From IMG/VR virus record IMGVR_UViG_3300025764_000004, positions 10,010 through 74,009 of that record: a DNA stretch of 64,000 bases, one strand, 5' to 3'. Source of the DNA: a virus. The position numbers and the translations under genes were made by a program. The notes beneath the pieces are model-generated. The model ran no database searches. It was not told the origin of the DNA and saw only the letters and a program-made list of their open reading frames with translations. Shown here piece after piece: positions 3,485-64,000 of this stretch. Positions within the stretch are counted from its first letter, which is position 1. Each line of letters begins with the position of its first letter.

Positions 3485-3874
3485 ATGTATGTCATAAGGA
3501 AAGAATTTCAAGCTAGTTGTATGCACCATTTATTAGGATTGCCTGAGGATCACCCGTGCGGACGAGTTCATGGGCATAACTATGTTATAGTGGTTGAGTT
3601 AAGATCAGAGACTTTAAACAAAATTGGATTTGTCAAAGATTATGGGGAACTTAACGTTATCAAAGAGTGGATTGACAAAACAATGGATCATAGAGCTTTA
3701 AATGATGTATTCTCATTCAATCCAACAGCGGAAAATCTTGCAAAGCATTTATATGAAAGATTTGTAATGTTACTCGGGACTGATGGTATGTTTTTAAATG
3801 CTGTTGAAGTATCAGAGACACCCAAAACAAATTCACGTTTTTATAAAACATATAATGAGCACACAACTGATTAA
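3485..3874 (+). CDS. queD: 6-carboxytetrahydropterin synthase
   Basis: CGRVHGHNY, DH..LN, PTAEN.A, V.ETP motifs. Confidence 0.93.
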   Translation: MYVIRKEFQASCMHHLLGLPEDHPCGRVHGHNYVIVVELRSETLNKIGFVKDYGELNVIKEWIDKTMDHRALNDVFSFNPTAENLAKHLYERFVMLLGTDGMFLNAVEVSETPKTNSRFYKTYNEHTTD

Positions 3875-4610
3875 AGCATTTCCTGACTTTGTAAAAGAGG
3901 AGCCTTCAGATAGCTTTTTAAGAGTGTCTGAGTTCTTTTGCGACACAATTCAAGGGGAAGGAATACATATAGGACACCCGGCTACTTTCCTACGTTTTCA
4001 GGGCTGTGAATTATATTGTATCTATTGTGACACTAAAGAAGTTTGGAGGCAAGGCAACCCGTATTCATTCGATGAATTGTACACAATTATGTCTTCTGAA
4101 GGGTTGCCTAATAAATTACTTCATGGACAACATTTAGTCATAACAGGAGGGAGTCCTTTGTTGCAACAAAATAGTCTGTATTGGTTCTTGACAGGATTTA
4201 TAGCAAAGTTTGGATTTAAACCTTATATTGAAGTAGAAAACGAATGTGTAATCCCACCTAATTTAGGCCTGCAAGGTTTAGTAGATTGCTGGAACAACTC
4301 TCCAAAATTAGCATCAAGCGGTGTTTCCTCTTTTATCAGAATTAAAAATGAAGTTCTGTATAAAATGTCAAATCTGCAAAATAGTTGGTTCAAGTTTGTT
4401 ATAGGAAAAGATGACTGTTGGTGTGAGATAAACGATTTAATTGAAGCTGGATTGATTCGTAAAGAACAGGTTATACTTATGCCGGAAGGAGCTACTCGAG
4501 AAGAAATTGCAGAGCATAAAGAAGCGGTGTTAAATATGGCTATACAACATGGTGTAAGATATTCGGATCGTTTACATATTCAATTTTGGAACAGAGAAAT
4601 AGGTGTTTGA
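3855..4610 (+). CDS. queE: 7-carboxy-7-deazaguanine synthase (radical SAM)
   Basis: E.F..TIQGEG, F.R..GC.L.C.YCDT, VITGG.P, RLH. Confidence 0.92.
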   Translation: MSTQLIKAFPDFVKEEPSDSFLRVSEFFCDTIQGEGIHIGHPATFLRFQGCELYCIYCDTKEVWRQGNPYSFDELYTIMSSEGLPNKLLHGQHLVITGGSPLLQQNSLYWFLTGFIAKFGFKPYIEVENECVIPPNLGLQGLVDCWNNSPKLASSGVSSFIRIKNEVLYKMSNLQNSWFKFVIGKDDCWCEINDLIEAGLIRKEQVILMPEGATREEIAEHKEAVLNMAIQHGVRYSDRLHIQFWNREIGV

Positions 4611-4680
4611 AAAAGATGTGTATTAGTTGGTTTAGTTAGATCAAGAAACCTGGAAGTTTCTTGTGAGTTCTTTCAGGCTT

Positions 4681-4708
4681 ACCTCCTGTCCTTCGGGCAG
4701 GGGGTTTT
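4681..4708 (+). terminator. intrinsic terminator
   Basis: ACCTCCTGTCC-TTCG-GGCAGGGGGT then TTT. Confidence 0.6.
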
Positions 4709-4806
4709 GGCATCAAAAGAGATAGGTTATGAAAGATATAGATTTTGAACCATTTGATCTTATATGTTATCCCGAAGTAGTACCAGAATCAGAAAGAGAA
4801 TAAGTT

Positions 4807-5013
4807 ATGAAAAAACAAAAAAGATTTGAAATTGGGGATTTTTTAAAAACAAGAATAACCGGCATGCACCCTGAAATTATAATTTCAGATGCACCTCCAA
4901 CTAAATGGCAGATATTTTTCTACAAAGTAAATCCATTTAAAAGATTTTTCAATAATAAAGAACGAGAAAGAGTTTATAAATGGTATTTATCATCAAAAGA
5001 AGGTCGTTTATGA
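4807..5013 (+). CDS. hypothetical protein
   Basis: ORF, ATGA overlap with next gene. Confidence 0.5.
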   Translation: MKKQKRFEIGDFLKTRITGMHPEIIISDAPPTKWQIFFYKVNPFKRFFNNKERERVYKWYLSSKEGRL

Positions 5014-5282
5014 ATCAAAAACAAAAAGATCAGTTAAGACTGGCAGCTTTACTCATACACGAAGCTGAAAGTATTATAAAAGATGTTAAATCAGAAGAAC
5101 AAAAATCTATTAACGATCTAAAAATAAATAAGGCTGTTGATTTAAACAGAACATCTGAAGAGGTAATAGCTGCTCTAGAAGATGCGGAATACTCATTAAA
5201 AGATGTAACTTCCAACCTTTCTACGACACTTGTAGAAGATTTTATTTGTATAATAGGTGTAAGAAATGTTTTTTACAATTAA
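5010..5282 (+). CDS. hypothetical helical protein
   Basis: ORF, amphipathic helices. Confidence 0.55.
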   Translation: MNQKQKDQLRLAALLIHEAESIIKDVKSEEQKSINDLKINKAVDLNRTSEEVIAALEDAEYSLKDVTSNLSTTLVEDFICIIGVRNVFYN

Positions 5283-5314
5283 GAATTAATTCATTAATCA
5301 TTAAAATTGTTATT

Positions 5315-6049
5315 ATGAAAGCAAAATTGAAAGACTTGCAAGTCGCTGCACAAGAATTGAATGCAATCGGGATCGACCCGGAAATTGATGCTGCATCTAC
5401 GGATGTAGAAGTATTGTTTGCTGGAATCAAAGATTCTTTGAGTGTTATTGAAGACACAGACGAGTTCACAACAAAGACTCAATCTGTTATTGACGAGGTT
5501 ACAGAAATTGTTGAAGCCGACAAAGTTCCTGAAGAAAAACCAAAACGTCAGGTGAAACCTGTTGCTGCTCCGGTTGTTGCTAAAAAAGAAGTGGTAGAAG
5601 AGGATGCAGAAACAACTCTTTATGACAAAGTAAAAGCTACCGCAAAGGTTGCTGATTTGAAAGCTATTGTTGAAGAAGAAGATGACTTCAAAAAGATCCG
5701 GAAAGCAATCGACACGTTCAAAAATCCATTTATCCTGAAACGTGCAATGTTGGACATTCTGGAAGAATCTGATCCGAAACTTGCTACAGGTGCTGCTGAA
5801 AAGAAAGCTGCAAAAACAGCAAAGAAAGAAGTAGATCCAAACGCTCCAAAGAAAAAGAATCCTTTTGTAAAGGTTGCCGGACAATTGTCTAATCTGGAAG
5901 TTGCTGAGAAGCTGTTATCAGAAAAAGCTGATCCGAAAACCATCTATGCTACATTTACCAAAGTGTATGAAGGCAAAGCTGGAGCAGACGAAAAGTACAT
6001 TAAAGGCCGAGCAGACATTTACATGAAAATTGCTGCAAAAGGTAAGTAA
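5315..6049 (+). CDS. Lys/Ala/Glu-rich protein, possible DNA-binding; C-terminal domain paralogous to 62798-63280
   Basis: own promoter-like motif and terminator; KKAAKTAKK linker; F..VY..K...D..YI..R..IY...A C-terminus. Confidence 0.7.
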   Translation: MKAKLKDLQVAAQELNAIGIDPEIDAASTDVEVLFAGIKDSLSVIEDTDEFTTKTQSVIDEVTEIVEADKVPEEKPKRQVKPVAAPVVAKKEVVEEDAETTLYDKVKATAKVADLKAIVEEEDDFKKIRKAIDTFKNPFILKRAMLDILEESDPKLATGAAEKKAAKTAKKEVDPNAPKKKNPFVKVAGQLSNLEVAEKLLSEKADPKTIYATFTKVYEGKAGADEKYIKGRADIYMKIAAKGK

Positions 6050-6073
6050 CTAAGTATTGATTTAAGTATTTAT

Positions 6074-6111
6074 GAAGCCCAGAGTTTAATTGATTACTCT
6101 GGGCTTCTTTT
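6074..6111 (+). terminator. intrinsic terminator
   Basis: GAAGCCCAGAGT/ACTCTGGGCTTC 12-bp stem plus TTTT. Confidence 0.85.
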
Positions 6112-6123
6112 AAACTTTTTATA

Positions 6124-6666
6124 ATGACACCAGAAGTACTAATTTATAAAATGCTCTTAGAAATTGGAGAGGATCCTGACAGAGAAGGATTGCTAGAAAC
6201 TCCAAAACGAATTGTAAAATCCTGGAAAGAACTTTACGCAGGGTATAATCAAAATCCTGCAGACTTGTTTACTGTATTTGAAGCAGGAACATACAATCAG
6301 ATTGTACTTCTTAAGGATATTGAAGTTTATAGTCTTTGTGAACACCACGGTCTGCCGTTCTTTGGAAAAGCTCATGTTGCATACATACCAAATGAAAAAG
6401 TTATAGGTATTTCCAAATTAGCACGTCTAGTAGATGTGTTTGCAAGGAGAATGCAAATTCAAGAACGAATCGGAGAACAAGTTACTTCTGCATTAATGGA
6501 ATATCTCCAACCAAAAGGTGCCGCTTGTATTATCCAAGCCTGTCATATGTGTATGAGAATGCGAGGAGTCAACAAACAACAATCTACAATGATCACCTCT
6601 TCGATGAAAGGGGAATTTTTGACAAATTTATCAGCTAAACAAGAATTAATGTCAATAATAAAATGA
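6124..6666 (+). CDS. folE: GTP cyclohydrolase I
   Basis: GEDPDREGLLETPKR, SLCEHH, GISKLAR, QIQER, HMCMRMRG. Confidence 0.96.
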   Translation: MTPEVLIYKMLLEIGEDPDREGLLETPKRIVKSWKELYAGYNQNPADLFTVFEAGTYNQIVLLKDIEVYSLCEHHGLPFFGKAHVAYIPNEKVIGISKLARLVDVFARRMQIQERIGEQVTSALMEYLQPKGAACIIQACHMCMRMRGVNKQQSTMITSSMKGEFLTNLSAKQELMSIIK

Positions 6667-6992
6667 AAAAATTTGTAACTATACGAACACAGTTTCCGGC
6701 CGTACATTGTTGGCCTGATTGTAATATCCCATCAGTAGGGTATCTTGTATTTCCACATCGTCATTTATTTGTTATAAAAATGAGTTGGGAAGTGTCAGAT
6801 AATAATCGCCAAATAGAATTTATTTCTAAAAAACAAGATGTGAACAAATACATTGCAAAACATTTTTATGATAAAGATTTGCGTTCTATGTCTTGCGAAG
6901 ACATTGCAGAAAAACTGCTAAACAGATTCAATGCTGACTCTATATCTGTATTTGAGGACGGGGAGAATGGTTGTGAGATATTTAAAGACTAA
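6663..6992 (+). CDS. QueD-paralogous T-fold protein, DpdL-like (proposed CDG decarboxylase)
   Basis: H.W..., LxxxHRHxF, IEF, SCE..A, V.EDGENG; as I recall LxxxHRHxF is the DpdL signature (needs verification). Confidence 0.65.
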   Translation: MKKFVTIRTQFPAVHCWPDCNIPSVGYLVFPHRHLFVIKMSWEVSDNNRQIEFISKKQDVNKYIAKHFYDKDLRSMSCEDIAEKLLNRFNADSISVFEDGENGCEIFKD

Positions 6993-6994
6993 GA

Positions 6995-8344
6995 ATGAAA
7001 AAATCAATCAATATTATCGACCCGTGCTCCACTGAGCAAAATCGAGGTAGTTTCTGTTATTCACCATATTTGTGTTATAATGGAATGGCTTTCACTCTTG
7101 ATGCTAATTTAATCGAATCATTCCAACCAGAAGATTTAGACAGTATTCCTGATGCGGACATACAACTTGTTTGTCTGTGGTCCTATCCTCAAATAGAATC
7201 TTCGATGATGTTAGCTATGTCACTTCCGTTTATGTACGGTAAAGACAATGTCTATTTTGTTGGGTATTCACCATTAATCAAACAATTAGGTTTACATCAT
7301 ATTGAAGAAAAGTTAGGATTTGATCCATTACAAGATGAAGCATTCCTTGTTCATGCAATGAGTCGATACCCTGTAAATTATCACAAGTTTAAACGTTTGT
7401 TATTATCCGATTGTGATATGCATCTACGTCATTTAGATGCAGGAGAAAAGGTTTATCCACTGTTCACTTCATACGGTTGTGACCAAGGATGTTCATTTTG
7501 CCCAAGTACAACTAATTGCGGACGTAGGAGAATTGAAGTTCCTTTGTCTAAAGTTTGTACAATGTTAGATCAGTGTATCAAACAAGGCATAAAATCTATT
7601 CATTTTACAGATGAAGATTTCTTTTACGACATCAACCGGGCATTTAAAATCTTGTTAATGTTACAAGGAAAAGGAATGCATCTGATTGCATTAGGATCTG
7701 CTGAAGCTGTTTCTTACTTTATTGCTAAATATGGTGTTGACCCAATTAAAAATGCAGGTTTAGAAGTGATTGAGATTGGATTTGAATCAGGGGATGCAGA
7801 AGTGTCTAAGAAAATGGGACATGGTAAAAGTTTGTCTGCTTGCGAAGAACTTGCACAGATGCAAGATTGGATTCCATTTCGTATATTCTGGTTAGTACTT
7901 ACCTTCTTTCCAGGTGAGACAATTCATAGTTTAAATGAGACAGGACGCTTCATGTTAAAGTACGGATTTGAACAAGAAGAGGTGATGGGGAGGCTTCGTA
8001 CAAATGGAACAAAGATTGGCCTTGGGCAATTTATGCAATGGTATGATGGTATAGCTATGGCTAAATCTTTAGAAAAAAATGGAATAAAATTAACGCAAAG
8101 GCCTGTAAGATTGATTCCTTCGTATGTTCCAAATTCGTTTTTGGAAAGTATAATTACTGAAATACACGAAGAAGCTATTGAAAAAACAATACCTTATTTA
8201 GAGCTATACAATACTGCTTTGCCTAATAAACCTCTTGAAATCGGCAGAAAAATAAGCTATTATTTAGAAGATATGCCTATATACGGTTACATACGCACAT
8301 TAACTGCCTTAGCAATATTAGCCAGAGGAGGAGTCATACGATGA
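6995..8344 (+). CDS. radical SAM enzyme (B12-dependent-class-like layout)
   Basis: TSYGCDQGCSFC (CxxxCxxC), F.DEDF, IGFESG, PGET; about 150-aa N-terminal extension. Confidence 0.85.
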   Translation: MKKSINIIDPCSTEQNRGSFCYSPYLCYNGMAFTLDANLIESFQPEDLDSIPDADIQLVCLWSYPQIESSMMLAMSLPFMYGKDNVYFVGYSPLIKQLGLHHIEEKLGFDPLQDEAFLVHAMSRYPVNYHKFKRLLLSDCDMHLRHLDAGEKVYPLFTSYGCDQGCSFCPSTTNCGRRRIEVPLSKVCTMLDQCIKQGIKSIHFTDEDFFYDINRAFKILLMLQGKGMHLIALGSAEAVSYFIAKYGVDPIKNAGLEVIEIGFESGDAEVSKKMGHGKSLSACEELAQMQDWIPFRIFWLVLTFFPGETIHSLNETGRFMLKYGFEQEEVMGRLRTNGTKIGLGQFMQWYDGIAMAKSLEKNGIKLTQRPVRLIPSYVPNSFLESIITEIHEEAIEKTIPYLELYNTALPNKPLEIGRKISYYLEDMPIYGYIRTLTALAILARGGVIR

Positions 8345-8646
8345 ACGCTAAACTCAAATCTTTTGCATCGAATCTGATGCTAATAACAGGTATCATTACA
8401 AGTATTGCCGGGGTTATTGAAACTATCGGTAAACTGGTATTGTCTTTCCGCACCAAGAATATCCCAGAGGTTAAATCAATCAGTAAGTCAATAATCCCGG
8501 AGTATGGCGACTTGCCCTCGGCTCCTCCTACTATTGAACAGGTAAGTTTCTTTGCTGAGTATCGAGGAATAATATTGATAGTTACCGGAATATTGGTTAT
8601 TGCATTTTCATTGTGGATTATCAAACGGTTAAAAACTAGAATATGA
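8341..8646 (+). CDS. two-TM membrane protein
   Basis: two hydrophobic segments; ATGA overlaps on both sides. Confidence 0.55.
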   Translation: MNAKLKSFASNLMLITGIITSIAGVIETIGKLVLSFRTKNIPEVKSISKSIIPEYGDLPSAPPTIEQVSFFAEYRGIILIVTGILVIAFSLWIIKRLKTRI

Positions 8647-9668
8647 GAACAGTAATATTAAACATTCCAATAGAACCTATTGAAGATAGATATAGTGTAC
8701 AATGGGATAAATGGTTTCAGAGTGCTTTTCATGAGAATCCTGATTTAGAACTTATTAGTGTGCATGGAGGAGTTACTTCAGGAAGTATCAGACAAGGTAG
8801 TTTTTTAGATGTCATAGAAACGAATCTATATAAAAATAAACAGTTAGACAAGATTCTGCATTATCTAAACACTTATAAAGATGATCATAAACTCATTTTA
8901 TTTTTCCATGATTTGTGGAATCCTGCACTTACATCAATAGCGTACGTTCGGGATGGGATGGGTTGGAAAAATCTACGTATATGCGGATGTCTTCATTCAG
9001 GAAGTTATGACAAGTTTGATTTTTTAAACAAACAAGGAATGACTAAGTGGGCAGCTAGAATAGAAGAAGGATGGTGTAAGATTGTAGATAAAATATTTGT
9101 AGCTACTCATTATCATGATATTTTACTACGCTCAAAAAGAGTATTATTAGATGATTGGGATAAAATTGTTGTAACAGGATTCCCTCTTTATGACGATTTT
9201 CAACAACCTCATAATATAATGGATGACGAAAGTATTCCTATTATAGTATTTCCTCATCGTTTAGACAGTGAAAAGAATCCTCAAATGTTTGATGAATTAA
9301 AAAGCAGACTACCAAGTTATAGATTCATCAAAACAAAAGAAAACTGCAAGACTAAAGAATCATATTATCGTTTATTAAAATCTTCTGATGTTGCTGTTAG
9401 TTTTGCAGATCAAGAAACCTGGGGTATAGCAATGCAAGAAGCAGTTATTTGCGGAGCTCTTCCGATGTGTCCTAATCGTTTGTCTTATACTGAAATGTAC
9501 CCATCTGCTTTTTTATTTGAGAATTTTGAAGAGTGTGTCAACAAAATAAAATGGTTATTAGCACATGAGAATCAAGCTAATGAATTTCTACAAAATACCA
9601 AAAATACAATTCTCCGTAAAGGCAGAGAAGCAATTCCAAATATGATTAAAGAAATTGAAAAACTATGA
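8643..9668 (+). CDS. GT-B fold (GT4-like) glycosyltransferase
   Basis: VFPHRL..EK.P, QETWGIAMQEA (E-x7-E), P.RLSY.E. Confidence 0.85.
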   Translation: MRTVILNIPIEPIEDRYSVQWDKWFQSAFHENPDLELISVHGGVTSGSIRQGSFLDVIETNLYKNKQLDKILHYLNTYKDDHKLILFFHDLWNPALTSIAYVRDGMGWKNLRICGCLHSGSYDKFDFLNKQGMTKWAARIEEGWCKIVDKIFVATHYHDILLRSKRVLLDDWDKIVVTGFPLYDDFQQPHNIMDDESIPIIVFPHRLDSEKNPQMFDELKSRLPSYRFIKTKENCKTKESYYRLLKSSDVAVSFADQETWGIAMQEAVICGALPMCPNRLSYTEMYPSAFLFENFEECVNKIKWLLAHENQANEFLQNTKNTILRKGREAIPNMIKEIEKL

Positions 9669-9802
9669 AAACAGACATATATCCAGATGATGAAGATTAT
9701 GAAGAAATAATCAAAGATGATTATGAAGATGATAGTGAATGGGAGGAAGAAGATGAAGATAAAGAAGATGGCTATGGTATAACTTCAGATGATGAATTAT
9801 GA
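9665..9802 (+). CDS. 45-aa hyperacidic microprotein
   Basis: MKTDIYPDDEDYEEIIKDDYEDDSEWEEEDEDKEDGYGITSDDEL; ATGA overlaps with both neighbours. Confidence 0.7.
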   Translation: MKTDIYPDDEDYEEIIKDDYEDDSEWEEEDEDKEDGYGITSDDEL

Positions 9803-10878
9803 AAAAGAATATTTTTGATTTCAAAGTGTTTATAGATTGTGGGGCTCCTTCGCTCTACAATAAACTGTCTCGAAATGATTTATCTGGTGGGCGAGGAGTG
9901 ATGGGCACAAAGATGTCGGAACGTAAATTTGATGATTACTCCTATGTAGACAAACCAGAATATGCTACTTATCGAGAAGCTTATATTGAATTTATGTTAA
10001 AGCATAAGGATGAAGTTGATGTTTATTCAAACTTAGATGTTATCAACAATCCTAAACTGACATACAGAAATCAAAAGATAATCGAAGAAGCAGGGTTACA
10101 TCCAATTCCAGTTTGGCACTTAGGCAATGATCCGAAATGGTTAGAAAGGTATGTTAAAGAATACGATTATATTGCTATCGGAGGACTTGTACCTAACCCG
10201 ACATCTGTACTGATTCCTTTATTAGATGCCTTATTTAAAGAACACTTGCTAGACAGCAAAGGGTACCCGAAAGTTAAGCTTCACGGCTTTGCCTGCACTT
10301 CATTGCCACTGATGGAACGCTTCCCATGGTTTTCAGTCGACTCGGCTACTTGTAGAAAACTTGCAAACTTCGGAAGTATTGTTTTGCCAGATTACGGTAA
10401 ACAGAATCCTGTTAGTACATTTCAAGTGTCTTCTCGTACAAAAAGAATACCAGAAGAAAAAGTAGGAATGTTTAATCTTGAGGATGCTCCTGCATCAGAC
10501 TGGTTAACAGATATGTCAAGTCAAGTTAGGAAAGCATTTGATTTAAGATTAGATAAATACGGAATGACTATACAACAATTAGGGGACAGTATTATTCACA
10601 GAGTTGTCTGGAATTATTTAATCTTCTCTGAAGTAATACAAAAGACTGTTCCTGCATGGCCGTGGAGTATGCAGACTAGACAATGTAAATATGAGTCTGC
10701 ATATTGTGAGGAAGATCTCGGTTACATGACTTTCTATTTTGCCGGAATACTTAGCAAAAGTGAAGAGAATACATTCTGGAAAGGTGTATCCCATCCTATT
10801 ACTGAACGATTAAAAGGTTCACTTCGATCCTTTTTCTATGCACAGAACGCTGAATATGTACTTAGTTTAAAAAAGTAA
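9799..10878 (+). CDS. dpdA: TGT-fold DNA guanine transglycosylase, DpdA-like
   Basis: FIDCGA.S (DSGA/G motif), NLDVI, PVWH, IAIGGL, LHGFA, SVDSAT; in fol/que cluster. Confidence 0.78.
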   Translation: MKKNIFDFKVFIDCGAPSLYNKLSRNDLSGGRGVMGTKMSERKFDDYSYVDKPEYATYREAYIEFMLKHKDEVDVYSNLDVINNPKLTYRNQKIIEEAGLHPIPVWHLGNDPKWLERYVKEYDYIAIGGLVPNPTSVLIPLLDALFKEHLLDSKGYPKVKLHGFACTSLPLMERFPWFSVDSATCRKLANFGSIVLPDYGKQNPVSTFQVSSRTKRIPEEKVGMFNLEDAPASDWLTDMSSQVRKAFDLRLDKYGMTIQQLGDSIIHRVVWNYLIFSEVIQKTVPAWPWSMQTRQCKYESAYCEEDLGYMTFYFAGILSKSEENTFWKGVSHPITERLKGSLRSFFYAQNAEYVLSLKK

Positions 10879-10884
10879 AAGATT

Positions 10885-11427: not shown

Positions 11428-11430
11428 GAT

Positions 11431-11655
11431 ATGGATACAAATAAATTAGGACAAGAACCGGCATTTCCAATTGACAATACAGCAAATTATGGCAACAACG
11501 AACCGGGAATATCAAAGCGTTTTTACGCTGCCTGTGCTGCAATGCAAGGACTATTATCTAATAGCAACGAAAACATGGTTACATTAAACGCTGAACAGCT
11601 TGTGTTTATAGCTTTTGAACATGCAGACGAACTTTTAAGACAAAAAAATATATAA
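11431..11655 (+). CDS. conserved small phage protein
   Basis: PAFP...GISKR.Y.A..AMQGLL...A...AD.LL pattern common in phages. Confidence 0.7.
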   Translation: MDTNKLGQEPAFPIDNTANYGNNEPGISKRFYAACAAMQGLLSNSNENMVTLNAEQLVFIAFEHADELLRQKNI

Positions 11656-11658
11656 AAA

Positions 11659-12672
11659 ATGGAAATCAGTAAATCACAACTACTAGCTGCCTTAGAAATT
11701 GTAAAACCAGGCTTGGCAAACAAAGAACTCATTGAACAATCAACCTCATTTGCATTTATGGGGGATAGAGTTGTCACCTACAATGATGACATATCAATGT
11801 CTCATCCTATTACAGGACTTGAGTTGACAGGTGCAGTAACCGCAGAATTACTTTATAAGCTTCTCGGAAAGTTAAAAGACGATGCAATCAATATCGAGTT
11901 AAAAGAAGGTGAAATCTTGTTTAAATCAGGACGTGCAAAAGCCGGATTAAACATTCAACAAGAAATCAAACTTCCACTTGACGAGGAAATTGCATATAAA
12001 GAGAAGTGGAAAGCATTACCTGACACATTTATAGCAGGTGTTGATTTCAGTGTAGGTAGTTGCAGTAGAGATATGTCTAGGCCTGTTCTTACCTGTGTTC
12101 ATGTTATACAAGAAGGGTTTGTCGAAGCGTCAGACTCCCATCGTATTATGAGATATACTTTAGCAGGAGAGATGCCTATTGAGGATTTTTTATTGCCTTC
12201 ATCTGCTGCCATGACTATGTGCAAACTTAAACCAACACATATTGCAAAGGGACGAGGATGGGTTCACTTTAAAAATGCAAAAGAAACAATTTTGTCTTGT
12301 CGTATATTTGAAGATAAGTTTCCTGACACATCTGTTATTTTAGATGTAAAAGGTAAGCCTATTGAATTGCCTAAAGAAATTTCTGTAATTCTGGATCGTG
12401 CTGCGGTGTTTGCAAAGCGAGATCACCAAATGGATGAAAGTGTTCAAATTACATTAGAGCCTGGACGTCTAAAAATAAGAGGACAGGCAGAAAGCGGATG
12501 GTTTGAAGAATCCTGTCGTATGACTTATGAAGGAGAAAATTTAACATTCAATGTTACTCCTTATTTGTTAAAAGGAATATTGACACAGACTTCTTCTGGC
12601 ATATTAGGCGAGCATCTTTTAAAGTTTGAAGGTGCAAATTGGATTTATGTAACAGCATTAAGAGAGGTATAA
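11659..12672 (+). CDS. dnaN: DNA polymerase sliding clamp (beta-like)
   Basis: 337 aa, SRPVLT.V, ASDSHR, FPD...I, FN..YL. Confidence 0.8.
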   Translation: MEISKSQLLAALEIVKPGLANKELIEQSTSFAFMGDRVVTYNDDISMSHPITGLELTGAVTAELLYKLLGKLKDDAINIELKEGEILFKSGRAKAGLNIQQEIKLPLDEEIAYKEKWKALPDTFIAGVDFSVGSCSRDMSRPVLTCVHVIQEGFVEASDSHRIMRYTLAGEMPIEDFLLPSSAAMTMCKLKPTHIAKGRGWVHFKNAKETILSCRIFEDKFPDTSVILDVKGKPIELPKEISVILDRAAVFAKRDHQMDESVQITLEPGRLKIRGQAESGWFEESCRMTYEGENLTFNVTPYLLKGILTQTSSGILGEHLLKFEGANWIYVTALREV

Positions 12673-12675
12673 ATT

Positions 12676-18342: not shown

Positions 18343-18346
18343 AATT

Positions 18347-51153: not shown

Positions 51154-51190
51154 ATCTTAATCTTTAACAATTTTTCTAATTCTATGACCA

Positions 51191-52819: not shown

Positions 52820-52820
52820 A

Positions 52821-54175: not shown

Positions 54176-54195
54176 TTTTATCTTTGTTTTTATGG

Positions 54196-55977: not shown

Positions 55978-55978
55978 A

Positions 55979-57529
55979 TTAATCTGGATTAGAAGTGTAA
56001 AAACCAATATTATCAGCATAACCGGTCTGCCCGGCGCCACTATTACCTACAGATACCCTTTTAACATTGTAACTTCCTGTGTCCACGCCTGTTTGATTTA
56101 TTTCAAGTACATAACCTGCACCCGCATCAACCCAAACCTGAACAACACCTACTGTGGCACTTATTACCAATCTAACTTTGACTTTATACCATGTACTTGC
56201 AGTAAATGTAGTTGTACCTGTATATGTTGCTGGGGTAATACTATTATAGACTTGCACCTTCGGTGATGCGTCGCTTGAAAATCTGGGAGTAATAATGGTT
56301 GCATTAGAATTCGTATTGTCAAAAATGCCAACTTGTGTTCTGGTGGATGCCGTTGCACCGGTTCTGAAATTACCTACCATCCAAACTTCGGGATAATTGC
56401 TTGCAAGTACAAGTCTTTCGAATAGAGTTGTGGCCAGTTGAAGCCCATAAGTACCACCCCCTGTGGGTGCTGCTATTCCAAAATTGGCATAAGTATTAAC
56501 TGTTCCCTGATTTGTTGTCCATCCAGTAGCCGAACCTGCTTCAAAGGTATCCGCAATGAGAGGCACAGCAGCAATGACACTGTCAGCCGCCCAAACAGGG
56601 GATTTCCAGTAATTATTAGACTTAATCCAAAGTCTTCCATGATTAGAACTAACATAGGCATTTCCTGTAGTAGGTGGAGTTGGTAGCACTCGAATTGAAT
56701 CAGCAGTTCCACTTCCTCCTCCACCAGCTACTAGCCTTGCATAAGCTCTTGATGCTACTGAATCAGTATTCAGATTAATATTTAATATCGTTTCAATTGG
56801 GATAGTATCAGAAGCTAGCGGTACATTAAGATCAACCCTCATTTCTGCTGCTGTTCTTGGCGTTACTGTATTGGCTACATCCATACGTACAAATCTAACT
56901 GCTCCCGGATTGGTTAGTTTAACAAAATTTTGTCCTATTGTTGTTGCATCACTAATTGTTGATACTGCTTGAGTATGGGAAGTTGGTGTCCTTGCATCAG
57001 AAAGTCTTGAATCATTACCTACTGTTATCTTTCCTGAAGTAGAACCAAAATTACTAGCCCAATTCCCCCATCCATAGGCAGTCGTTCCATTGGTTGCCGC
57101 CCCCGCTGCATCAAACGCACTTCCATTGCCAATATAATAACCCATGGCCGTCCACGGTGTTCCCGTTACCGCTCCGATTGCAGCTCTAAAATCAGAAGCA
57201 TTTAACAAAGATGCTGTGTTGTTTGCATTTACCTGAAGAAATGAGATTGCATCTGGGTTGGTAAGTTTTAGTATTGCTTTTCCAATAGTGGTAGCATCAC
57301 TCAGATGACTTGCAGTAATATAAGGGATTAACTGTGTCGCACCCTTGTAAAATCGAATACCATCGGTTGAGTACTGAAGAACGCTATCAAGTAATATTTT
57401 ACTTGATCCGGGAGGAGGCGGATAAGATTTAAGTCCGATCCATATTCCCTTAGGTGCAAGAAGTTGAGCATTTACTGTAATAGCAAATATCAATAATATT
57501 AAAATTCCAAATAACTTTTTCATAGTCAT
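55979..57529 (-). CDS. fibre-like protein with signal peptide and C-terminal LamG/ConA-like domain
   Basis: signal peptide ending VNA-Q; duplicated SDATTIG...LTNP.A..F; GNDSRLSDARTP; WY.V........G.VQVWVD. Confidence 0.7.
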   Translation of the reverse strand: MTMKKLFGILILLIFAITVNAQLLAPKGIWIGLKSYPPPPGSSKILLDSVLQYSTDGIRFYKGATQLIPYITASHLSDATTIGKAILKLTNPDAISFLQVNANNTASLLNASDFRAAIGAVTGTPWTAMGYYIGNGSAFDAAGAATNGTTAYGWGNWASNFGSTSGKITVGNDSRLSDARTPTSHTQAVSTISDATTIGQNFVKLTNPGAVRFVRMDVANTVTPRTAAEMRVDLNVPLASDTIPIETILNINLNTDSVASRAYARLVAGGGGSGTADSIRVLPTPPTTGNAYVSSNHGRLWIKSNNYWKSPVWAADSVIAAVPLIADTFEAGSATGWTTNQGTVNTYANFGIAAPTGGGTYGLQLATTLFERLVLASNYPEVWMVGNFRTGATASTRTQVGIFDNTNSNATIITPRFSSDASPKVQVYNSITPATYTGTTTFTASTWYKVKVRLVISATVGVVQVWVDAGAGYVLEINQTGVDTGSYNVKRVSVGNSGAGQTGYADNIGFYTSNPD

Positions 57530-57541
57530 AAATTTTAATGT

Positions 57542-57769
57542 TTAAACTGCTCCACCAATGTTTTCCCAATCAGTATCTTCATCTCCAGCGAATCCGGTCA
57601 CGGTTAGTTCCACATCGACTTTAAGACCGCCTCCACTTTTCCCCACTCTAAGTCTTAAAGAGGATCCTTGCTCAACAAAATAGGCATATTGAGCAGTAAC
57701 TGTACTAGATACAGGGTCGCTTGGAGATCCAAATAATCTTTTCCCGTTTTCATCATAATAAAAATTCAT
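57542..57769 (-). CDS. hypothetical protein
   Basis: ORF. Confidence 0.55.
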   Translation of the reverse strand: MNFYYDENGKRLFGSPSDPVSSTVTAQYAYFVEQGSSLRLRVGKSGGGLKVDVELTVTGFAGDEDTDWENIGGAV

Positions 57770-57944
57770 ATCTTAGATTTTAAATGGTTGAATATTTATA
57801 TATTACGATATAATTTCTACGACATATACCAATCATACATTTGTGCTTTAACTTCACTGGCACTTCCATAAAATACTGCTATGTGTCTAACACCGCCTTC
57901 AGTATAATTAATTCTTACTACCATAACTTTAAGTTTTAAATTGT

Positions 57945-58409
57945 TTATAATACAGTCACGGTAACCACCCAGTTTCCAGTTGTTATACCGTCCTGTGCAA
58001 TAATTGCATAAGTTTTCGGTGCCGTGAAATTATTTGCCGTTACATCACTCACCTGATCAGTAGCACCAATTTTGATAGATGTAATGTCTATGAATGTCAT
58101 AAATGTTGCAACTAATGCAGTTACGACTGTTCCACGAGCAACAGTTACGTCAATAGTTTTAGCGTCAAGATCAATTATATATTCGGTATCATCCGGAACA
58201 TTTAAAAATGTTAAAAGAAGATCAGCCCGAGAACTCTTCCATTGAGTTAATGAGCCGTCTAACCCTTCTTTAAGAATTTTAGGTTCTTTAATGAGTTTTC
58301 CTCGAAGATCATACTCTCCTTGATAACTATTTCCTACTATCTTCCCACGAAGATCTAGTTCTCCTAGATATCCTAGGTCGTTTCCTTTTAAATCAGTTCT
58401 GTTTCCCAT
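57945..58409 (-). CDS. Ig-like domain protein
   Basis: I.VTV..GT.VTALVATF...Q.S.VTANNFT.P.TY...AQDG. Confidence 0.65.
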   Translation of the reverse strand: MGNRTDLKGNDLGYLGELDLRGKIVGNSYQGEYDLRGKLIKEPKILKEGLDGSLTQWKSSRADLLLTFLNVPDDTEYIIDLDAKTIDVTVARGTVVTALVATFMTFIDITSIKIGATDQVSDVTANNFTAPKTYAIIAQDGITTGNWVVTVTVL

Positions 58410-58420
58410 TTTTTATATAT

Positions 58421-59962
58421 TTAAGTGATACGAGTTGCTAATCTACGTGCTGTCAAATGATTGAATGCCCCTGACGAAGCATCCACCTGATCTTTATATG
58501 TTCCCAATGGAAAAAATCTATGTTCTTCAATATATGAAGTATTCCAAGGTGCTGACAATAAAGAAACTGCTCCATTATTCACCTGAACTGAGTAAGGATC
58601 TGCTCTATATGCCTTATCTCCTGTTGGTCGATCAGCATAACAAGCAAACCCGGCTAAATGCCGTATTGTTGATTCGGCACTTTCTTTGCCTCCAGAGCCA
58701 GGCTCCTGCTCTATGTAGATGTTTACATGCCTGCCGTCTAATCGGGCAACTTCGAGGATAATTCGCTCCCGTTCATCGGTGCTCCACTGCCCCCGCTTTA
58801 CATCATGCACAAAAAACCGTTCTCTTGTTAATTGTGACATTTTTACACCAACTGTGAAAGCACCTCCGCCAGCCGTTCCAGCCTTATCCCAATAACGGTA
58901 GGTTCTTAAAATCTCATTTGCTGGAGGTTCTACGGTTGCTATCCCAAAATGATCGACATGAAACATACCTCCGCCAACTGGGATAGGATTCTGTCCTATC
59001 TGTCCAGCATACCCGTATTGACCTAGATCAGCTTCTAGATCTTTCAACACTTTCCAATTCAGTCGTTTCGGATCTAATAAATTGTTGACATAATATTCTG
59101 CTAATTCTGGGGGCTGGACCTGATCTTTGAAATTGAGTATTTCACCAGGTAAAGAAATGTTCTTGACATTCTTTTTCTTCTTCGCAAGAACATGACCGGT
59201 AGGATCATCTTGGTGAAGTCTTTGCATGATGCCAATGATGACTGAAATTCCTTTGTCAGTTTTACGTGTTGGTAAGGTTCGGTCAATCCAAGCATTAGCC
59301 GTTTCCCGTTCTTTATCTGAAACTGATTGAGTTGGATTCAACGGATCGTCCCATATTAGAATATCACCGTGAAATCCCATCAATGTACCTCCAACTGAAG
59401 TTGAATATCTATTACCTCCTTGAAGAATTGTATTACGTCCTGGACGCCCTGGTACAGGTTCTTCTTTAACTATTTTGAAGTTTGATTTGGTATCTTTGTC
59501 ATCTCTGATTGCAATTTCTGGATATAATGTTTTAAATTGATCCGAGCGAATCAAATCCCTGCAATATTCTGCTGATTCTAAACTCAATGCAGCTGAATAT
59601 GAAGCAGTGATAAATCTCATCCAGTACCATCGTGTCCAACACCAAGCTGGAAACATTATAGAAAAGACAATGGTTTTTGATGTACCTGGAGGAACATTTG
59701 CAATCAGATCATACAATTTTTCCTCTCTATCACCTACCCGTTCTGCAATCACTTCCAATTCTTTGCAGAATAATTCTAAATGCCAGTTTCCGACAAAGGT
59801 CTGATTACAAATAACAGGCCAGAACCATTGAACAAAATGATACAGTGAACGATTATTCAATTCACGAACGACCAGAAGAGGATTCTTCATCGCAACTTGA
59901 ACTCTTTCTATCTTGGAAAGTTGTTCAGTGCTCACTTCTTCTGTCATTGTATCAAATTCCAT
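58421..59962 (-). CDS. terL: terminase large subunit
   Basis: NVPPGTSKT, G..GD...DDP, IMQRLH.DD, YWD.A, EQEPG.GGK, DQVDA. Confidence 0.93.
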   Translation of the reverse strand: MEFDTMTEEVSTEQLSKIERVQVAMKNPLLVVRELNNRSLYHFVQWFWPVICNQTFVGNWHLELFCKELEVIAERVGDREEKLYDLIANVPPGTSKTIVFSIMFPAWCWTRWYWMRFITASYSAALSLESAEYCRDLIRSDQFKTLYPEIAIRDDKDTKSNFKIVKEEPVPGRPGRNTILQGGNRYSTSVGGTLMGFHGDILIWDDPLNPTQSVSDKERETANAWIDRTLPTRKTDKGISVIIGIMQRLHQDDPTGHVLAKKKKNVKNISLPGEILNFKDQVQPPELAEYYVNNLLDPKRLNWKVLKDLEADLGQYGYAGQIGQNPIPVGGGMFHVDHFGIATVEPPANEILRTYRYWDKAGTAGGGAFTVGVKMSQLTRERFFVHDVKRGQWSTDERERIILEVARLDGRHVNIYIEQEPGSGGKESAESTIRHLAGFACYADRPTGDKAYRADPYSVQVNNGAVSLLSAPWNTSYIEEHRFFPLGTYKDQVDASSGAFNHLTARRLATRIT

Positions 59963-59963
59963 C

Positions 59964-60467
59964 CTAACAACTTGTTAATTTTCCGTTTCTCAAAAATCCA
60001 TGATAATCGCCTGCCATAATCGATCCTGCTCCTGCATGACAGGTATTTCCGTCCTTGCTTATTGTCACATTTGGTGGAATTCCTTTTCTTACCCAGCATC
60101 TATGAAGTTTGTCATCTTTCATATCACAATTAATTGCTCTGCTATCAATATTCCATTCAATCCCATTTGGAAGAATGCAATGAAGTTCATCTCCTTCAAA
60201 ATTATCCCAATTATAGTTCTGATAATCTAAATGAACCCAAAACATATCACCTGGTTCTGGTTTTCCAGATACAGTATTATATACAGTACTCAAACCCCAA
60301 CCTGAATATTCTCCAAAATATTTGATAAGAATTTCCCAATTAATCTTTTTCTTCACATCATCCAAATCAGCATTCATTGGATGAATATGACATAAATCAA
60401 GATGTTTTCCTGATTTAAATAAAATGTGAATTCTTTTACCAATAGGTTCAATTAATCTTGTGTCCAT
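59964..60467 (-). CDS. conserved Cys/His-rich hypothetical protein
   Basis: HRCW.R.G.PP..T, TC.AG.GSI...YHGFL..G.L. Confidence 0.65.
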   Translation of the reverse strand: MDTRLIEPIGKRIHILFKSGKHLDLCHIHPMNADLDDVKKKINWEILIKYFGEYSGWGLSTVYNTVSGKPEPGDMFWVHLDYQNYNWDNFEGDELHCILPNGIEWNIDSRAINCDMKDDKLHRCWVRKGIPPNVTISKDGNTCHAGAGSIMAGDYHGFLRNGKLTSC

Positions 60468-61118
60468 CTATGCTGATTTTTGTTGTTCTGCAAATACTGT
60501 TGGAAGTGATTTAATTCCGATCTTCTTCATCAACTGAAGTTCTTCCATTGACATATCCGACATATCAAACTTGTTATTGACCTGTATATTGACATTCTGT
60601 GTTGTCTGTGATTTGACTGATTCTGCCCACAATGCTGGAAATCTGACTCTGAGCAAATACTGAGCAGCTCTATCATTTGGTTGAATATGTCGAGTCATTA
60701 TCTTTTCTGACTTTAGGTTCTTGATCATTTCACCTGTCAACTTATCTTTTCTCATTTCATACTCAACAGCTCGTTCTTCAACCTCATACCCAATGGCCTG
60801 TTTATATAATGATGAAACCAATGCTTGACCATTCAGTTCACGACCTTGATATAAGGCCGTCGATAACTCTTTGGACAATTGAATATATCTTTGTAATGTT
60901 GCTGATTGAATCCCGTAGAAGACAGCAATCTGTTCATTCGTCAATCCAAACTGAGCTAAGCAACGAATTTCTTCAAGCATCCGGTCTTGGAAACGGCCTT
61001 TCTGTTCTTTCCATGGAACTGTCTCGTCAAGACAATAATCATTTTCTAATGGAAGAGTTCTTGTATTGATTAACTCTACGACGATCGGTTCTTCTATCTT
61101 TCTTCTTGTACGTTCCAT
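60468..61118 (-). CDS. terS: terminase small subunit
   Basis: HTH G.T..QIA...GI...TL; V.SLY..A.GY; P...A..Y.L..R.P..W. Confidence 0.82.
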   Translation of the reverse strand: MERTRRKIEEPIVVELINTRTLPLENDYCLDETVPWKEQKGRFQDRMLEEIRCLAQFGLTNEQIAVFYGIQSATLQRYIQLSKELSTALYQGRELNGQALVSSLYKQAIGYEVEERAVEYEMRKDKLTGEMIKNLKSEKIMTRHIQPNDRAAQYLLRVRFPALWAESVKSQTTQNVNIQVNNKFDMSDMSMEELQLMKKIGIKSLPTVFAEQQKSA

Positions 61119-61346
61119 AATAACTAAAAAATAAATGCCTGTAACTAGGGTGCTCCAGAGCCTTAAAGTATGAGATAACAGCCTACTAAATGATAATTTT
61201 ATTATTGTATTCTATCGTTGATTTTGTCTTTGATTAATTTTCTTCTTATAGAGTGTTTATAATAGAACACTAAGTTCATAACAAAAATACACGAAGCACC
61301 CTATAAAACGTTTAAATATCTAAGCTTTGACTCGTTGAACACTAAC

Positions 61347-61544
61347 TTTCTAAGCACTTAAAAATATTTGAAATTTTTCTTATACTACTTTCTTAAATGG
61401 GTACTCTGATTGAACTACTTTTTACTACTTAAACACTAAATGTATCATTTACTTTGATATATTCTTCTTCTATACTACTATGTTTGACTGCGAATGTAAT
61501 GACTAAGTGCTTTTCTAAGCTGTGATATATATTTGAAATTTTTC
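61347..61544 (+). repeat. bipartite direct repeat TTTCTAAGC-N8-ATATTTGAAATTTTTC (61347-61379, 61512-61544)
   Basis: two copies 165 bp apart in the non-coding gap upstream of terS. Confidence 0.75.
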
Positions 61545-62023
61545 GATCGCATTCAGTTTTGTACAAACTAAACATAAAGCATTCAAACGCAAACGTTAGT
61601 GCTGCAAGCGTTACAGCGTGTTACCAATAATATAAATATGTACATGTATGTTTTGTTGCAAAGTATATAACAAATAGCACATGTACTGTGTATTAAGTAG
61701 TTAGCACGTTTTAACTTTACTTTTATGTTATGCTATTGTGCTAAAGTATTAGTTTACAGCACGTTACGCGTACGCTTGCGTAAATTGCGCGCAAAAATTA
61801 TGCTATAAACGTAAAGCTATATATGTAACTATGTGCATACTATTGTAAGTAAGTTTTAGCATGTAAACTTTTGCGTATATGCAAATATTTAAGCTGCTTT
61901 GTTTGTGTTATGTGTTTATAAACATTTTTTTAATATTTGTTTTAAAATGTGCAACTTTTTTTAGTGCTATACGTTTAATACAGCAATGTGTGCAACGTAG
62001 CACATATTTAACAAACTTACATT

Positions 62024-62185
62024 ATGTTACACAATTACACAACAGCACAATTACAGCACATGTACATTAATAGTATTGCAGCAGCAAAACTTAACAACAG
62101 TAAACGTATTACTAAATTAAGTGTACACACTTTAAAAGTATTAGCAAAGCAATATTTTATACAGTTAGTTAATTACACATTTTAA
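62024..62185 (+). CDS. 53-aa basic protein lacking D/E/G/P/W
   Basis: MLHNYTTAQLQHMYINSIAAAKLNNSKRITKLSVHTLKVLAKQYFIQLVNYTF; preceded by AAACTTACATT. Confidence 0.7.
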   Translation: MLHNYTTAQLQHMYINSIAAAKLNNSKRITKLSVHTLKVLAKQYFIQLVNYTF

Positions 62186-62197
62186 CACTTTACAATT

Positions 62198-62332
62198 ATG
62201 CAAAACTTTACACACACAACAGCGCAGCATAGTAATACAATAGTTACTGTATGCTTTTTTACATTTGTTTTAGTATTTATTGCATGTTGCTACTTAGTAG
62301 TAATTAATGCAACAGTTATTAACGTTTTATAA
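62198..62332 (+). CDS. 44-aa single-TM protein lacking D/E/G/P/W
   Basis: MQNFTHTTAQHSNTIVTVCFFTFVLVFIACCYLVVINATVINVL; 12-nt spacer upstream. Confidence 0.7.
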   Translation: MQNFTHTTAQHSNTIVTVCFFTFVLVFIACCYLVVINATVINVL

Positions 62333-62344
62333 AAACTTACAATT

Positions 62345-62584
62345 ATGCAAACAGTACAATTTTACAACAGCAACACAGCAACAGCAGCACAATTATTAAG
62401 TGCTAAAAATGCAGCAGCAGCAAACAAAGCAATTATAACAGCAGCAAATTTGCGCGTTATTTATTTGCAGCAACACTACTTTAATTTGCTTGCTAATACA
62501 AAAGCAAGCAAAGCACTAAAAAATGCTTATTTTTTAGCTTACAATGCACAAATACATAGTTTACGTTTATGCAATGCTTTTTAA
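62345..62584 (+). CDS. 79-aa Ala-rich protein lacking D/E/G/P/W
   Basis: 12-nt spacer AAACTTACAATT; GCA/ACA codon periodicity. Confidence 0.78.
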   Translation: MQTVQFYNSNTATAAQLLSAKNAAAANKAIITAANLRVIYLQQHYFNLLANTKASKALKNAYFLAYNAQIHSLRLCNAF

Positions 62585-62596
62585 AAATATACTATT

Positions 62597-62758
62597 ATGT
62601 TAATACAAAACTACAATAATTTTACAGCTATGCTATATAAAAATTTTAGCAATGTTAATACACACATTGCAGCTAGTTTAATAATAAAGCGTTATATACA
62701 TTTACGCAAACATGTAAAGCATTACACACAATTACACAATACAAAAAAACAGCACTAA
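62597..62758 (+). CDS. 53-aa His/Lys-rich protein lacking D/E/G/P/W
   Basis: MLIQNYNNFTAMLYKNFSNVNTHIAASLIIKRYIHLRKHVKHYTQLHNTKKQH; 12-nt spacer upstream. Confidence 0.65.
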   Translation: MLIQNYNNFTAMLYKNFSNVNTHIAASLIIKRYIHLRKHVKHYTQLHNTKKQH

Positions 62759-62797
62759 ATTTATTAACATTTTAAAAACTTACAAAAACTTAAAAAA

Positions 62798-63280
62798 ATG
62801 CAAAACACAAACAAACAAGCTGTAAACGTTACAAAAGTAACAACAGCACAAAGCACAGTTAGCAACAGCAAAGCAGCTATTTTAGCACGCAAAGCGTTAA
62901 ATTTAAGCAATGCAACAGCACGCACAGCAACAGCAAAAAATTTGCTTGTAACGCGCAATGTAATTAACACACTTACAACAGCACGCAAAGCAAAAAGCGC
63001 AAAAAAAGCTATGCAAGTACAAAGCACAGCAACAGCACACACAACAAAGTATAATAGCATTTATGCAAATGTAACTAGCTTGCACATGTTAGCAGCTATG
63101 CTTATTGTAAACAAACAAACAGTAACAAGCGTTACAAGTGTACAAGCGTTTATAGCAGCGTATGCACTTAAAAGCGTTACAAACGTTAACTTTATTGCTG
63201 TGCGTATGCAAATTTATTTTACGCACGCTAATACTTTGCAGCTTGTAGCAAAATTACAAGCTAAATTAGTAACAGTTTAA
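62798..63280 (+). CDS. 160-aa basic protein lacking D/E/G/P/W; paralog of C-terminus of 5315-6049
   Basis: long ORF, shared F-x3-Y-x2-K-x6-[YF]I-x2-R-x2-IY-x3-A pattern. Confidence 0.85.
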   Translation: MQNTNKQAVNVTKVTTAQSTVSNSKAAILARKALNLSNATARTATAKNLLVTRNVINTLTTARKAKSAKKAMQVQSTATAHTTKYNSIYANVTSLHMLAAMLIVNKQTVTSVTSVQAFIAAYALKSVTNVNFIAVRMQIYFTHANTLQLVAKLQAKLVTV

Positions 63281-63291
63281 CATTTGTAATT

Positions 63292-63624
63292 ATGCAAAAT
63301 ACAACTATTTACGCAAACAAGTTAGCTGCAAATGTAGCAGCTAACATAGCATTAAGCGCAGCGCAGCAAATTGTACTTAATGCAAAGCGTGCAAAACGTA
63401 TGCAACAGCAAAGCATTGTTATTTTAGCGCAAAGCAGCAAGCAAGCAAAGCAATTAGCAACAGCAAAAAAAACGTACATGTGTGCAATTGTAACTATACA
63501 GCAACAGTACGTTAATGTACACAATATTGCAATATTGCTAACAGCGTACACAACAGCAATGCAAAGCGCAAAAAACGCTTATTTTGCAGCAAAGCAAAGC
63601 ATACTAACAGTTAGTAACAATTAA
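63292..63624 (+). CDS. 110-aa helical protein lacking D/E/G/P/W
   Basis: 11-nt spacer ending AATT-ATG; shares KNAYF with 62345-62584. Confidence 0.8.
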   Translation: MQNTTIYANKLAANVAANIALSAAQQIVLNAKRAKRMQQQSIVILAQSSKQAKQLATAKKTYMCAIVTIQQQYVNVHNIAILLTAYTTAMQSAKNAYFAAKQSILTVSNN

Positions 63625-63653
63625 GCGTTTAAACACGTTTAAAATAGCTTACA

Positions 63654-63682
63654 AAGCACTATTAATTTAGTGCTTATTTTTT
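63654..63682 (+). terminator. intrinsic terminator built without GG/CC
   Basis: AAGCACTA-TTAATT-TAGTGCTT then ATTTTTT. Confidence 0.7.
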
Positions 63683-63807
63683 GTGCAAAAATTTAAAAAA
63701 TAACATAACAAATATTATTTGCAAAAGTAAATTTTAAAGTAATAAAGCAATTTTAAAAACAAAAAAGCAACAGCAAAGCAAAAAGCAATTTTTAAAACTA
63801 TTTACAA

Positions 63808-64000
63808 ATGTTAAACAAAAAACAAAATAGCACAGTTAAGCAACAGCACAAAAATTTAAAGCTAGTTTGTAAATTTACGTTTACAGCTAGTTTTTTACAT
63901 TTAAGCTATGCAATAGCACGCTTTAAAAATGTACGCTTAAACAAGCTTAAACAGCGTACAAATTATGTTAATATAAAATGCAGTATAGTACAGTATAGTA
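63808..64000 (+). CDS. basic protein lacking D/E/G/P/W, truncated by window end
   Basis: MLNKKQNSTVKQQHKNLKLVCKFTFTASFLHLSYAIARFKNVRLNKLKQRTNYVNIKCSIVQYS.. open to the end. Confidence 0.6.
   Translation, partial: MLNKKQNSTVKQQHKNLKLVCKFTFTASFLHLSYAIARFKNVRLNKLKQRTNYVNIKCSIVQYS

Follow-up and report, generated by a model that had tools for sequence, protein, structure and literature searches.

A putative immediate-early operon free of G-purine steps in an uncultured peat phage, possibly exempt from the phage's own DNA hypermodification

DNA modification systems built on the transglycosylase DpdA have been described in phage CAjan, where GA and GGC are modified (PMC7544227), and in phage Iggy, where GA is modified (PMC10484667). 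Both known motifs are a G followed by a purine, in agreement with the statement in an initial annotation of the DNA studied here that DpdA can be context-specific. Phages with deazaguanine-modified DNA are restricted by the defence nuclease GrwAB (PMC12137116). Exclusion of sequence words from early-acting DNA is documented in the first-step-transfer region of T5/BF23 (PMC10644984) and in the leading region of Murciavirus (PMC12455610), both of which are kept motif-free and evade host restriction. Here we describe a block of DNA in an uncultured peat phage (G000) from which the step G-purine is absent on both strands. The DNA analysed, hereafter the window, is 64,000 nucleotides (nt) long and corresponds to genome positions 10010-74009 of a 74,009-bp contig (IMGVR_UViG_3300025764_000004). 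We write GR for a G followed by a purine (GA or GG) and YC (TC or CC) for the same step read on the other strand; positions refer to the window unless given as genome positions or with a locus name.

The phage resembles the known DpdA systems in having DpdA, FolE, QueD, QueE and a protein with the DpdL signature, and the word banned from its block, G followed by a purine, is the word targeted in CAjan and Iggy. Its predicted modification pathway differs in that no QueC is seen in the cluster, to which a radical S-adenosylmethionine (SAM) enzyme and a glycosyltransferase (GT)-like gene are added; neither CAjan nor Iggy has been described as carrying a set of genes without target sites. Like T5/BF23 and Murciavirus, G000 excludes a word from DNA that is predicted to act early, in a hypervariable region of small, putatively early genes. 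However, those phages avoid restriction sites of 5-13 bp at no cost to protein composition, whereas the ban in G000 concerns two bases and its proteins are rewritten; the reader of the word in T5 and Murciavirus is a host restriction enzyme, whereas in G000 the suspected reader is an enzyme of the phage itself. Vertebrate RNA viruses likewise avoid a dinucleotide, suppressing CpG to evade ZAP, but that suppression is genome-wide, partial and at the level of RNA, while the avoidance in G000 is local, absolute and in the duplex DNA of a phage. In a literature search, we came across no report of early genes from which a dinucleotide is missing altogether.

Extent and anatomy of the GR-free zone

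The block, hereafter the zone, was detected by sliding dinucleotide counts and an exact scan. Over 2,450 bp it contains no GA, GG, TC or CC, where 366 would be expected from local base composition and 459 from the genome rate; the GR-free operon beside terS that the initial annotation had reported is therefore real, and stronger than claimed. The final exceptions upstream are a TC at 61583 and a CC at 61624. Past the window end the zone extends for 82 bp over the circular junction and stops at genome 202. The ends of the 74,009-bp contig overlap one another, and a contig of another peat sample runs from window 63993 directly into genome 121, so the zone is continuous over the junction. Elsewhere in the genome, the longest gap without GA, GG, TC or CC is 48 bp.

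The other 12 dinucleotides, all 36 permitted trinucleotides and all 108 permitted tetranucleotides occur about as often as a first-order Markov model predicts, which makes the rule exactly "no 5'-GR-3' on either strand", and no more. The zone is A/T-enriched, and both G (13.4%) and C (16.7%) stay common. Palindromes that lack GR (GCGC, CGCG, ACGT, GTAC, AGCT and TGCA) are 2.5- to 40-fold denser inside the zone than elsewhere, so the zone does not reflect general avoidance of restriction sites. The zone has 11 copies of GCGC, and the remainder of the genome has only 8, where 18.5 are expected.

The features of the zone and its surroundings are as follows.

58421-59962, - strand: terminase large subunit gene terL (phrog_38, E 3e-73)
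60468-61118, - strand: terminase small subunit gene terS (phrog_309, E 2e-19), heading the divergent late operon
61347-61379, + strand: 33-nt repeat, copy 1; it contains AATATTTG, a -7-like box of the Bacteroidota type, and is a candidate early promoter directed towards the zone
61512-61544, + strand: 33-nt repeat, copy 2, with the box TATATTTG at 61529-61536
61626-64000, then genome 121-202, no strand assigned: strict GR/YC-free zone
62024-62185, + strand: zone open reading frame (ORF) 1, 53 amino acids (aa), without D, E, G, P or W; operon-like spacing and the common start context without a Shine-Dalgarno sequence
62198-62332, + strand: zone ORF 2, 44 aa, hydrophobic; operon-like spacing and start context
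62345-62584, + strand: zone ORF 3, 79 aa (ORF reading, codon test)
62597-62758, + strand: zone ORF 4, 53 aa (ORF reading, codon test)
62798-63280, + strand: zone ORF 5, 160 aa, a recoded paralog (homology to L001:1747-2385 and, in the relative G011, to L118:3858-4442)
63292-63624, + strand: zone ORF 6, 110 aa (ORF reading, codon test)
63654-63675, + strand: terminator-like hairpin followed by a T-run, without GR/YC (sequence scan)
63808-64000, + strand: zone ORF 7, 66 aa in total, continuing past the end of the window into the beginning of the genome

The two terminase genes begin a leftward late operon that is divergent from the zone, and about 500 bp of ordinary intergenic DNA follow. The -7-like box in both 33-nt repeats has the form TAnnTTTG and points right, and a tandem pair of the same boxes is kept at the equivalent place in the closest relative, G011. 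The last GA on the sense strand, at 61547, lies approximately at the transcript start expected from the second box, and only three YC steps occur between this position and the total ban. A scan for sigma-70-type promoters and terminators gave a result no better than shuffles. The zone then comprises a leader of about 400 nt, six complete ORFs and the seventh that spans the window end. Its spacers are 11-12 nt, with one of 39 nt; the ORFs share the start context "AACTTACAATTATGCAAA", and every stop codon is TAA. The zone is best explained as the phage's predicted immediate-early transcription unit, read rightward from the promoter-like boxes; its place next to terS would also suit DNA that enters first. 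Several copies of TACTAC(T) (61380-61490) in the ordinary DNA that separates terS from the zone could be binding sites for the terminase or a regulator.

The ban reaches into the proteins. The six complete ORFs encode 499 residues without a single Asp, Glu, Gly, Pro or Trp, leaving an alphabet of 15 amino acids; the zone proteins are natural examples of proteins that fold and work with a restricted set of residues.

The rule is conserved and the content is hypervariable, as a variant contig from sample X4 leaves the G000 sequence at 61594 for different DNA that likewise lacks GR and YC. Because this co-occurring strain has the upstream DNA in common with G000 and switches sequence there, the start of the zone behaves like a recombination junction at which early cassettes can be exchanged. 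The peat samples are represented by assembled low-depth Logan contigs from 2016 Illumina-era runs, in which no variants are listed within the zone. A blastn comparison of the zone region with 50,697 phage records gave no match, a back-translated search of IMG/VR with a zone protein found no relatives, and zone ORFs other than ORF 5 have no detectable paralogs or orthologs.

Selection, strand asymmetry and related phages

We quantified avoidance with an index, computed by dynamic programming, that relates the observed number of GR/YC steps to the minimum possible and to the number expected from genome codon usage while the protein is held fixed. The index is 1.0 in all zone ORFs and 0.95, 0.54, 0.29, 0.13 and approximately 0 in successive downstream genes, against a background of -0.02 +/- 0.23; by this codon-level test, avoidance at the nucleotide level fades over about 2 kb downstream of the zone. 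Eight control dinucleotide sets submitted to the same test gave nothing comparable in the ten genomes completed. The zone is kept GR-free by strong, long-standing purifying selection that acts on non-coding DNA, synonymous sites and protein sequence.

The two strands do not relax together. In the four genes past the strict zone, the index for sense TC/CC, which is GR on the template strand, is 1.0, 0.92, 0.43 and 0.41, and that for sense GA/GG is 0.6, 0.26, 0.18 and -0.05; avoidance of template-strand GR thus outlasts that of sense-strand GR. The same order of relaxation is seen in L061, the locus of the relative G008, and at the far edge of the zone in the relative G006. If duplex DNA were read with full strand symmetry, no such order would be expected. 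The asymmetry and the gradual fading implicate transcription, in preference to DNA entry as the only cause. Just past the strict zone, the non-coding stretch L001 203-413 (genome coordinates) has TC and CC present and GA and GG absent from the + strand, a polarity opposite to that of the downstream flank; the stretch is G-poor, and the significance is weak. Positions 66201-66800 of the relative G004 resemble this pattern.

Recoding of a protein can be followed in zone ORF 5, which is homologous to the ordinary early gene L001:1747-2385 (paralog 1; E 6e-13). Aligned with ten homologs of that gene, ORF 5 retains 15 of 15 invariant residues, and every conserved D, E, G, P or W position of the family is replaced. 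The ortholog in G011 (L118:3858-4442; 51% identity, E 2e-22) has the purged core HLLAAML in common with ORF 5 and retains some D, E, G and P; the recoded lineage therefore predates the split of G000 and G011. The C of YC has mainly become A, and not T, relative both to the ortholog (8 of 10 changes) and to the paralog (6 of 11), and the residue swaps (E to T, S or A; G to A, V or T; P to V, T or K; W to M) are mostly not single transitions. With ordinary paralogs and a partly purged ortholog, this zone protein is available for direct comparison.

The third member of the family lies between queE and folE:

5246-6049, + strand: paralog 2, with the family C-terminal domain (E 6e-5 to paralog 1)

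This gene gave no direct blastp match to the zone ORF. The phage-only family thus has one ordinary early copy, one copy inside the deazaguanine cluster and one recoded copy in the zone, with a common helical C-terminal domain of about 60 residues (pattern KY..ITS..L..Y.LK..T..FI..R..IY). An AlphaFold2 model of the paralog family has a mean pLDDT of 63, with about 90 in the C-terminal domain; it matched nothing in the PDB and, in the protein atlas, only unnamed viral clusters below 0.9. A search for related loci with alignment A1 returned four loci.

Relatives (G001-G011) were collected as TerL-anchored loci from IMG/VR, the larger of which were examined as whole records; TerL is only 33-35% identical to that of cultured phages. 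The relatives that bear on the zone are the following.

G008 (L061), a 13.8-kb fragment too short for a DpdA call: GR/YC zone of about 3 kb at the same place, with ORFs unrelated to those of G000
G006, complete, with QueC and a 37% identical DpdA: zone of about 2 kb that bans only GG/CC and keeps TC
G004, with QueC: GA/GG-free stretch of about 600 bp
G011, with a pathway syntenic with that of G000 (FolE 79%, radical SAM enzyme 67%, GT 55%, DpdA 76% identical): weak remnant only
G003, G005 and G007, DpdA-positive: no zone
G001 and G002, at least 94% complete, DpdA-negative: no zone

Zones are seen only together with DpdA where this is determinable, and the dialect varies with the type of DpdA and pathway. 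In the remnant of G011 the GA/TC index is 0.58, the top value in that genome, GG/CC is not avoided, and D, E, G, P and W make up 12.9% of residues. Apparent depleted windows in G001, G002 and G010 were rejected, being AT-rich intergenic DNA that still holds GR/YC. An IMG/VR search anchored on DpdA returned only genes of 25-34% identity, none of which has a zone within 10 kb. Iggy offers a partial parallel that is not decisive: over roughly its final 1.1 kb, around the first early gene and a divergent promoter region, GA/TC is about 4-fold depleted and GG/CC is normal. A 300-bp stretch within a hypothetical gene of the same phage (L114/L115, 42700-43000) is nearly devoid of A and contains neither GA nor TC.

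The deazaguanine pathway and explanations for the ban

The initial annotation had listed queD, queE, folE, a DpdL-like gene, a radical SAM enzyme, a GT and DpdA, and this inventory holds, with a weak match for the GT.

3485-3874, + strand: QueD (PTPS; E 2e-27)
3798-4610, + strand: QueE-like radical SAM enzyme (phrog_2076, E 1e-44)
6124-6666, + strand: FolE, GTP cyclohydrolase I (E 4e-70)
6663-6992, + strand: DpdL-like T-fold protein with LVFPHRHLF, which fits the signature LxxxHRHxF
6995-8344, + strand: radical SAM enzyme (E 2e-10)
8643-9668, + strand: glycosyltransferase-like (weak match, below the Pfam cut-off; conserved in G011)
9799-10878, + strand: DpdA-type DNA transglycosylase (phrog_887, that is, PHROG 887; E 4e-41; 31% identity to the DpdA of Iggy)

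QueC, which is needed for preQ0-type bases, was not among the window genes scanned, G000 itself not having been searched with the QueC Pfam model that matches in the relatives G004 and G006. The signature LxxxHRHxF is that of DpdL, which has been proposed to form a 7-carboxy-7-deazaguanine (CDG) decarboxylase branch (PMC10516641). Another gene considered as a DpdA candidate (11659-12672) was rejected, because its product is the processivity factor of a polymerase.

The GR step must have a reader in the infected cell, most likely the phage's own DpdA. We favour, with a confidence just short of even, the reading that the zone is a GR-free immediate-early unit that escapes the phage's own putative GR-targeting DpdA. 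The enzyme would insert a QueC-independent 7-deazaguanine (DG) derivative at a G preceding a purine, and the DG-derived base may be further decorated by the products of the radical SAM and GT genes. It is plausible that DpdA reads GR in this way and that the first-read unit, lacking target sites, would stay unmodified in virion DNA, so that an unprepared host RNA polymerase, or a transcription-coupled process, would meet no modified G on the copied strand. A second and compatible benefit would be escape from a modification-dependent nuclease early in infection. The nature of the benefit is likewise a matter of plausibility: it is probably transcriptional, because template-strand GR is avoided furthest downstream, and escape at entry is also possible, because a nuclease directed against deazaguanine phages exists in GrwAB. 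Stated in full, the phage would exempt its immediate-early operon from its own hypermodification by means of an alphabet of 12 dinucleotides and 15 amino acids, the ban would reveal the motif, and the template bias would reflect hindered transcription or attack; this larger claim we advance only tentatively.

Several observations weigh against escape from DpdA. The remaining early genes contain GR at normal levels, although they too must be transcribed from the infecting DNA, and genome-wide GA/GG odds ratios are ordinary; genome-wide dinucleotide odds ratios fail to separate DpdA-positive from DpdA-negative genomes. The initial annotation had coupled the zone to DpdA, such that relatives lacking dpdA should not keep it, and the near-complete DpdA-negative G001 and G002 do have none. 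The coupling itself stands in part: zones occur only in relatives that are DpdA-positive or in which DpdA is undeterminable, but G003, G005 and G007 are DpdA-positive without a zone, our scan found none in CAjan, and G011 has only its weak remnant in spite of a 76% identical DpdA, which argues against tight coupling. DpdA alone thus does not suffice for a zone. The association rests on few genomes, and in the second strict case, G008, DpdA status is not readable from the 13.8-kb fragment.

The rival of greatest weight, though in our judgement an unlikely one, is that a host factor of very short specificity (a defence nuclease, repair enzyme or silencing protein) reads G-purine on DNA that is entering the cell or being transcribed early, and the early unit escapes it for as long as its products have yet to take effect, with the co-occurrence of DpdA reflecting shared hosts or ancestry. 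The core ban is a rule of duplex DNA, the strength of the zone differs with the same DpdA type (strict in G000, weak in G011) as if the host repertoire decided, and other phages are documented to evade host restriction by keeping motifs out of their leading regions (PMC10644984, PMC12455610). However, the GR-rich remainder of the genome would be attacked too unless protected, so modification would be needed again; phages whose DpdA and pathway are of different types also differ in dialect (G000 versus G006), and the DpdA-negative relatives have no zone at all. Moreover, we know of no enzyme that recognises the two-base word GR in unmodified DNA. Avoidance of the termination factor Rho is less probable still, and we regard it as doubtful. 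Under this explanation early messages, whose translation is poorly coupled, would be written without TC and CC against premature termination, given that the primary binding clefts of Rho read 5'-YC in nascent RNA (PMC12360218) and that coding-strand composition evolves for Rho avoidance (PMC13323073). It would suit the absence of sense TC/CC and its persistence as the longest-lasting component of the downstream flank, as well as a ban that begins at about the putative transcription start and covers the 400-nt leader. Yet the core ban is on both strands, and avoidance of Rho leaves unexplained the absence of the approximately 178 sense GA/GG steps expected in the zone core. The composition of the zone is also the opposite of what Rho avoidance produces: its sense strand has more C than G (C-G +0.030) and is poorer in purines (0.543) than that of every other gene class, the other classes having 0.556-0.562 purine and C-G of -0.03 to -0.06. 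Finally, G006 bans CC and keeps TC, Iggy depletes TC and keeps CC, and Rho reads both, while DpdA-negative relatives of the same architecture have no ban.

That the pattern is no product of selection, but the mutational footprint of a YC-specific cytosine deaminase (APOBEC- or DddA-like) on both strands, seems very improbable. An enzyme that turned TC into TT and CC into CT in either strand would eliminate precisely the four missing steps, TC, CC, GA and GG, and would fit the A/T enrichment of the zone; its ORFs, however, are intact and tightly spaced, one with a conserved homolog, the C of lost YC steps has mostly become A, few of the residue swaps can be explained by a single transition, and unrelated zone sequences in G008 and the variant strain obey the same rule. 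Nor, although the pattern looks designed, do we give any appreciable credence to an assembly artefact or a synthetic insert, as the identical sequence is present in contigs of at least eight peat metagenome samples and related phages of other samples carry their own versions.

If escape from the phage's own DpdA is the correct explanation, the banned word would reveal the target motif (GR in G000, GG in G006 and GA in Iggy-like phages), so that a genome sequence would suffice to give the target motif of an uncultured phage that modifies its DNA, and immediate-early units could be recognised without expression data. It would also mean that hypermodified DNA is costly enough, through transcription or modification-dependent defence, to rewrite proteins without Asp, Glu, Gly, Pro and Trp. 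Should the reader instead be a host factor, it would be an unknown one with two-base specificity and equally worth finding.

Other features of the genome and its relatives

Avoidance of particular palindromes varies among the phages compared. GATC is not avoided in G000 and is about 20-fold avoided in G006 (7 observed, 148 expected) and G003 (11 observed, 177 expected); CTAG is absent from G001, where 91 copies are expected. Such varying bans suggest different host restriction pressures. We considered the GATC statistics as support for a link to DpdA and dropped them, as they are confounded by host and the DpdA-negative G001 is also without GATC avoidance.

Two further genes are of note.

2885-3306, + strand: permuted transfer-messenger RNA (tmRNA) gene (ARAGORN), with the tag peptide GNDYQMKMAA
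13504-14724, + strand: UDG-superfamily domain fused to a PolA-type 3'-5' exonuclease domain, adjoining replication genes

A phage-encoded tmRNA is unusual.

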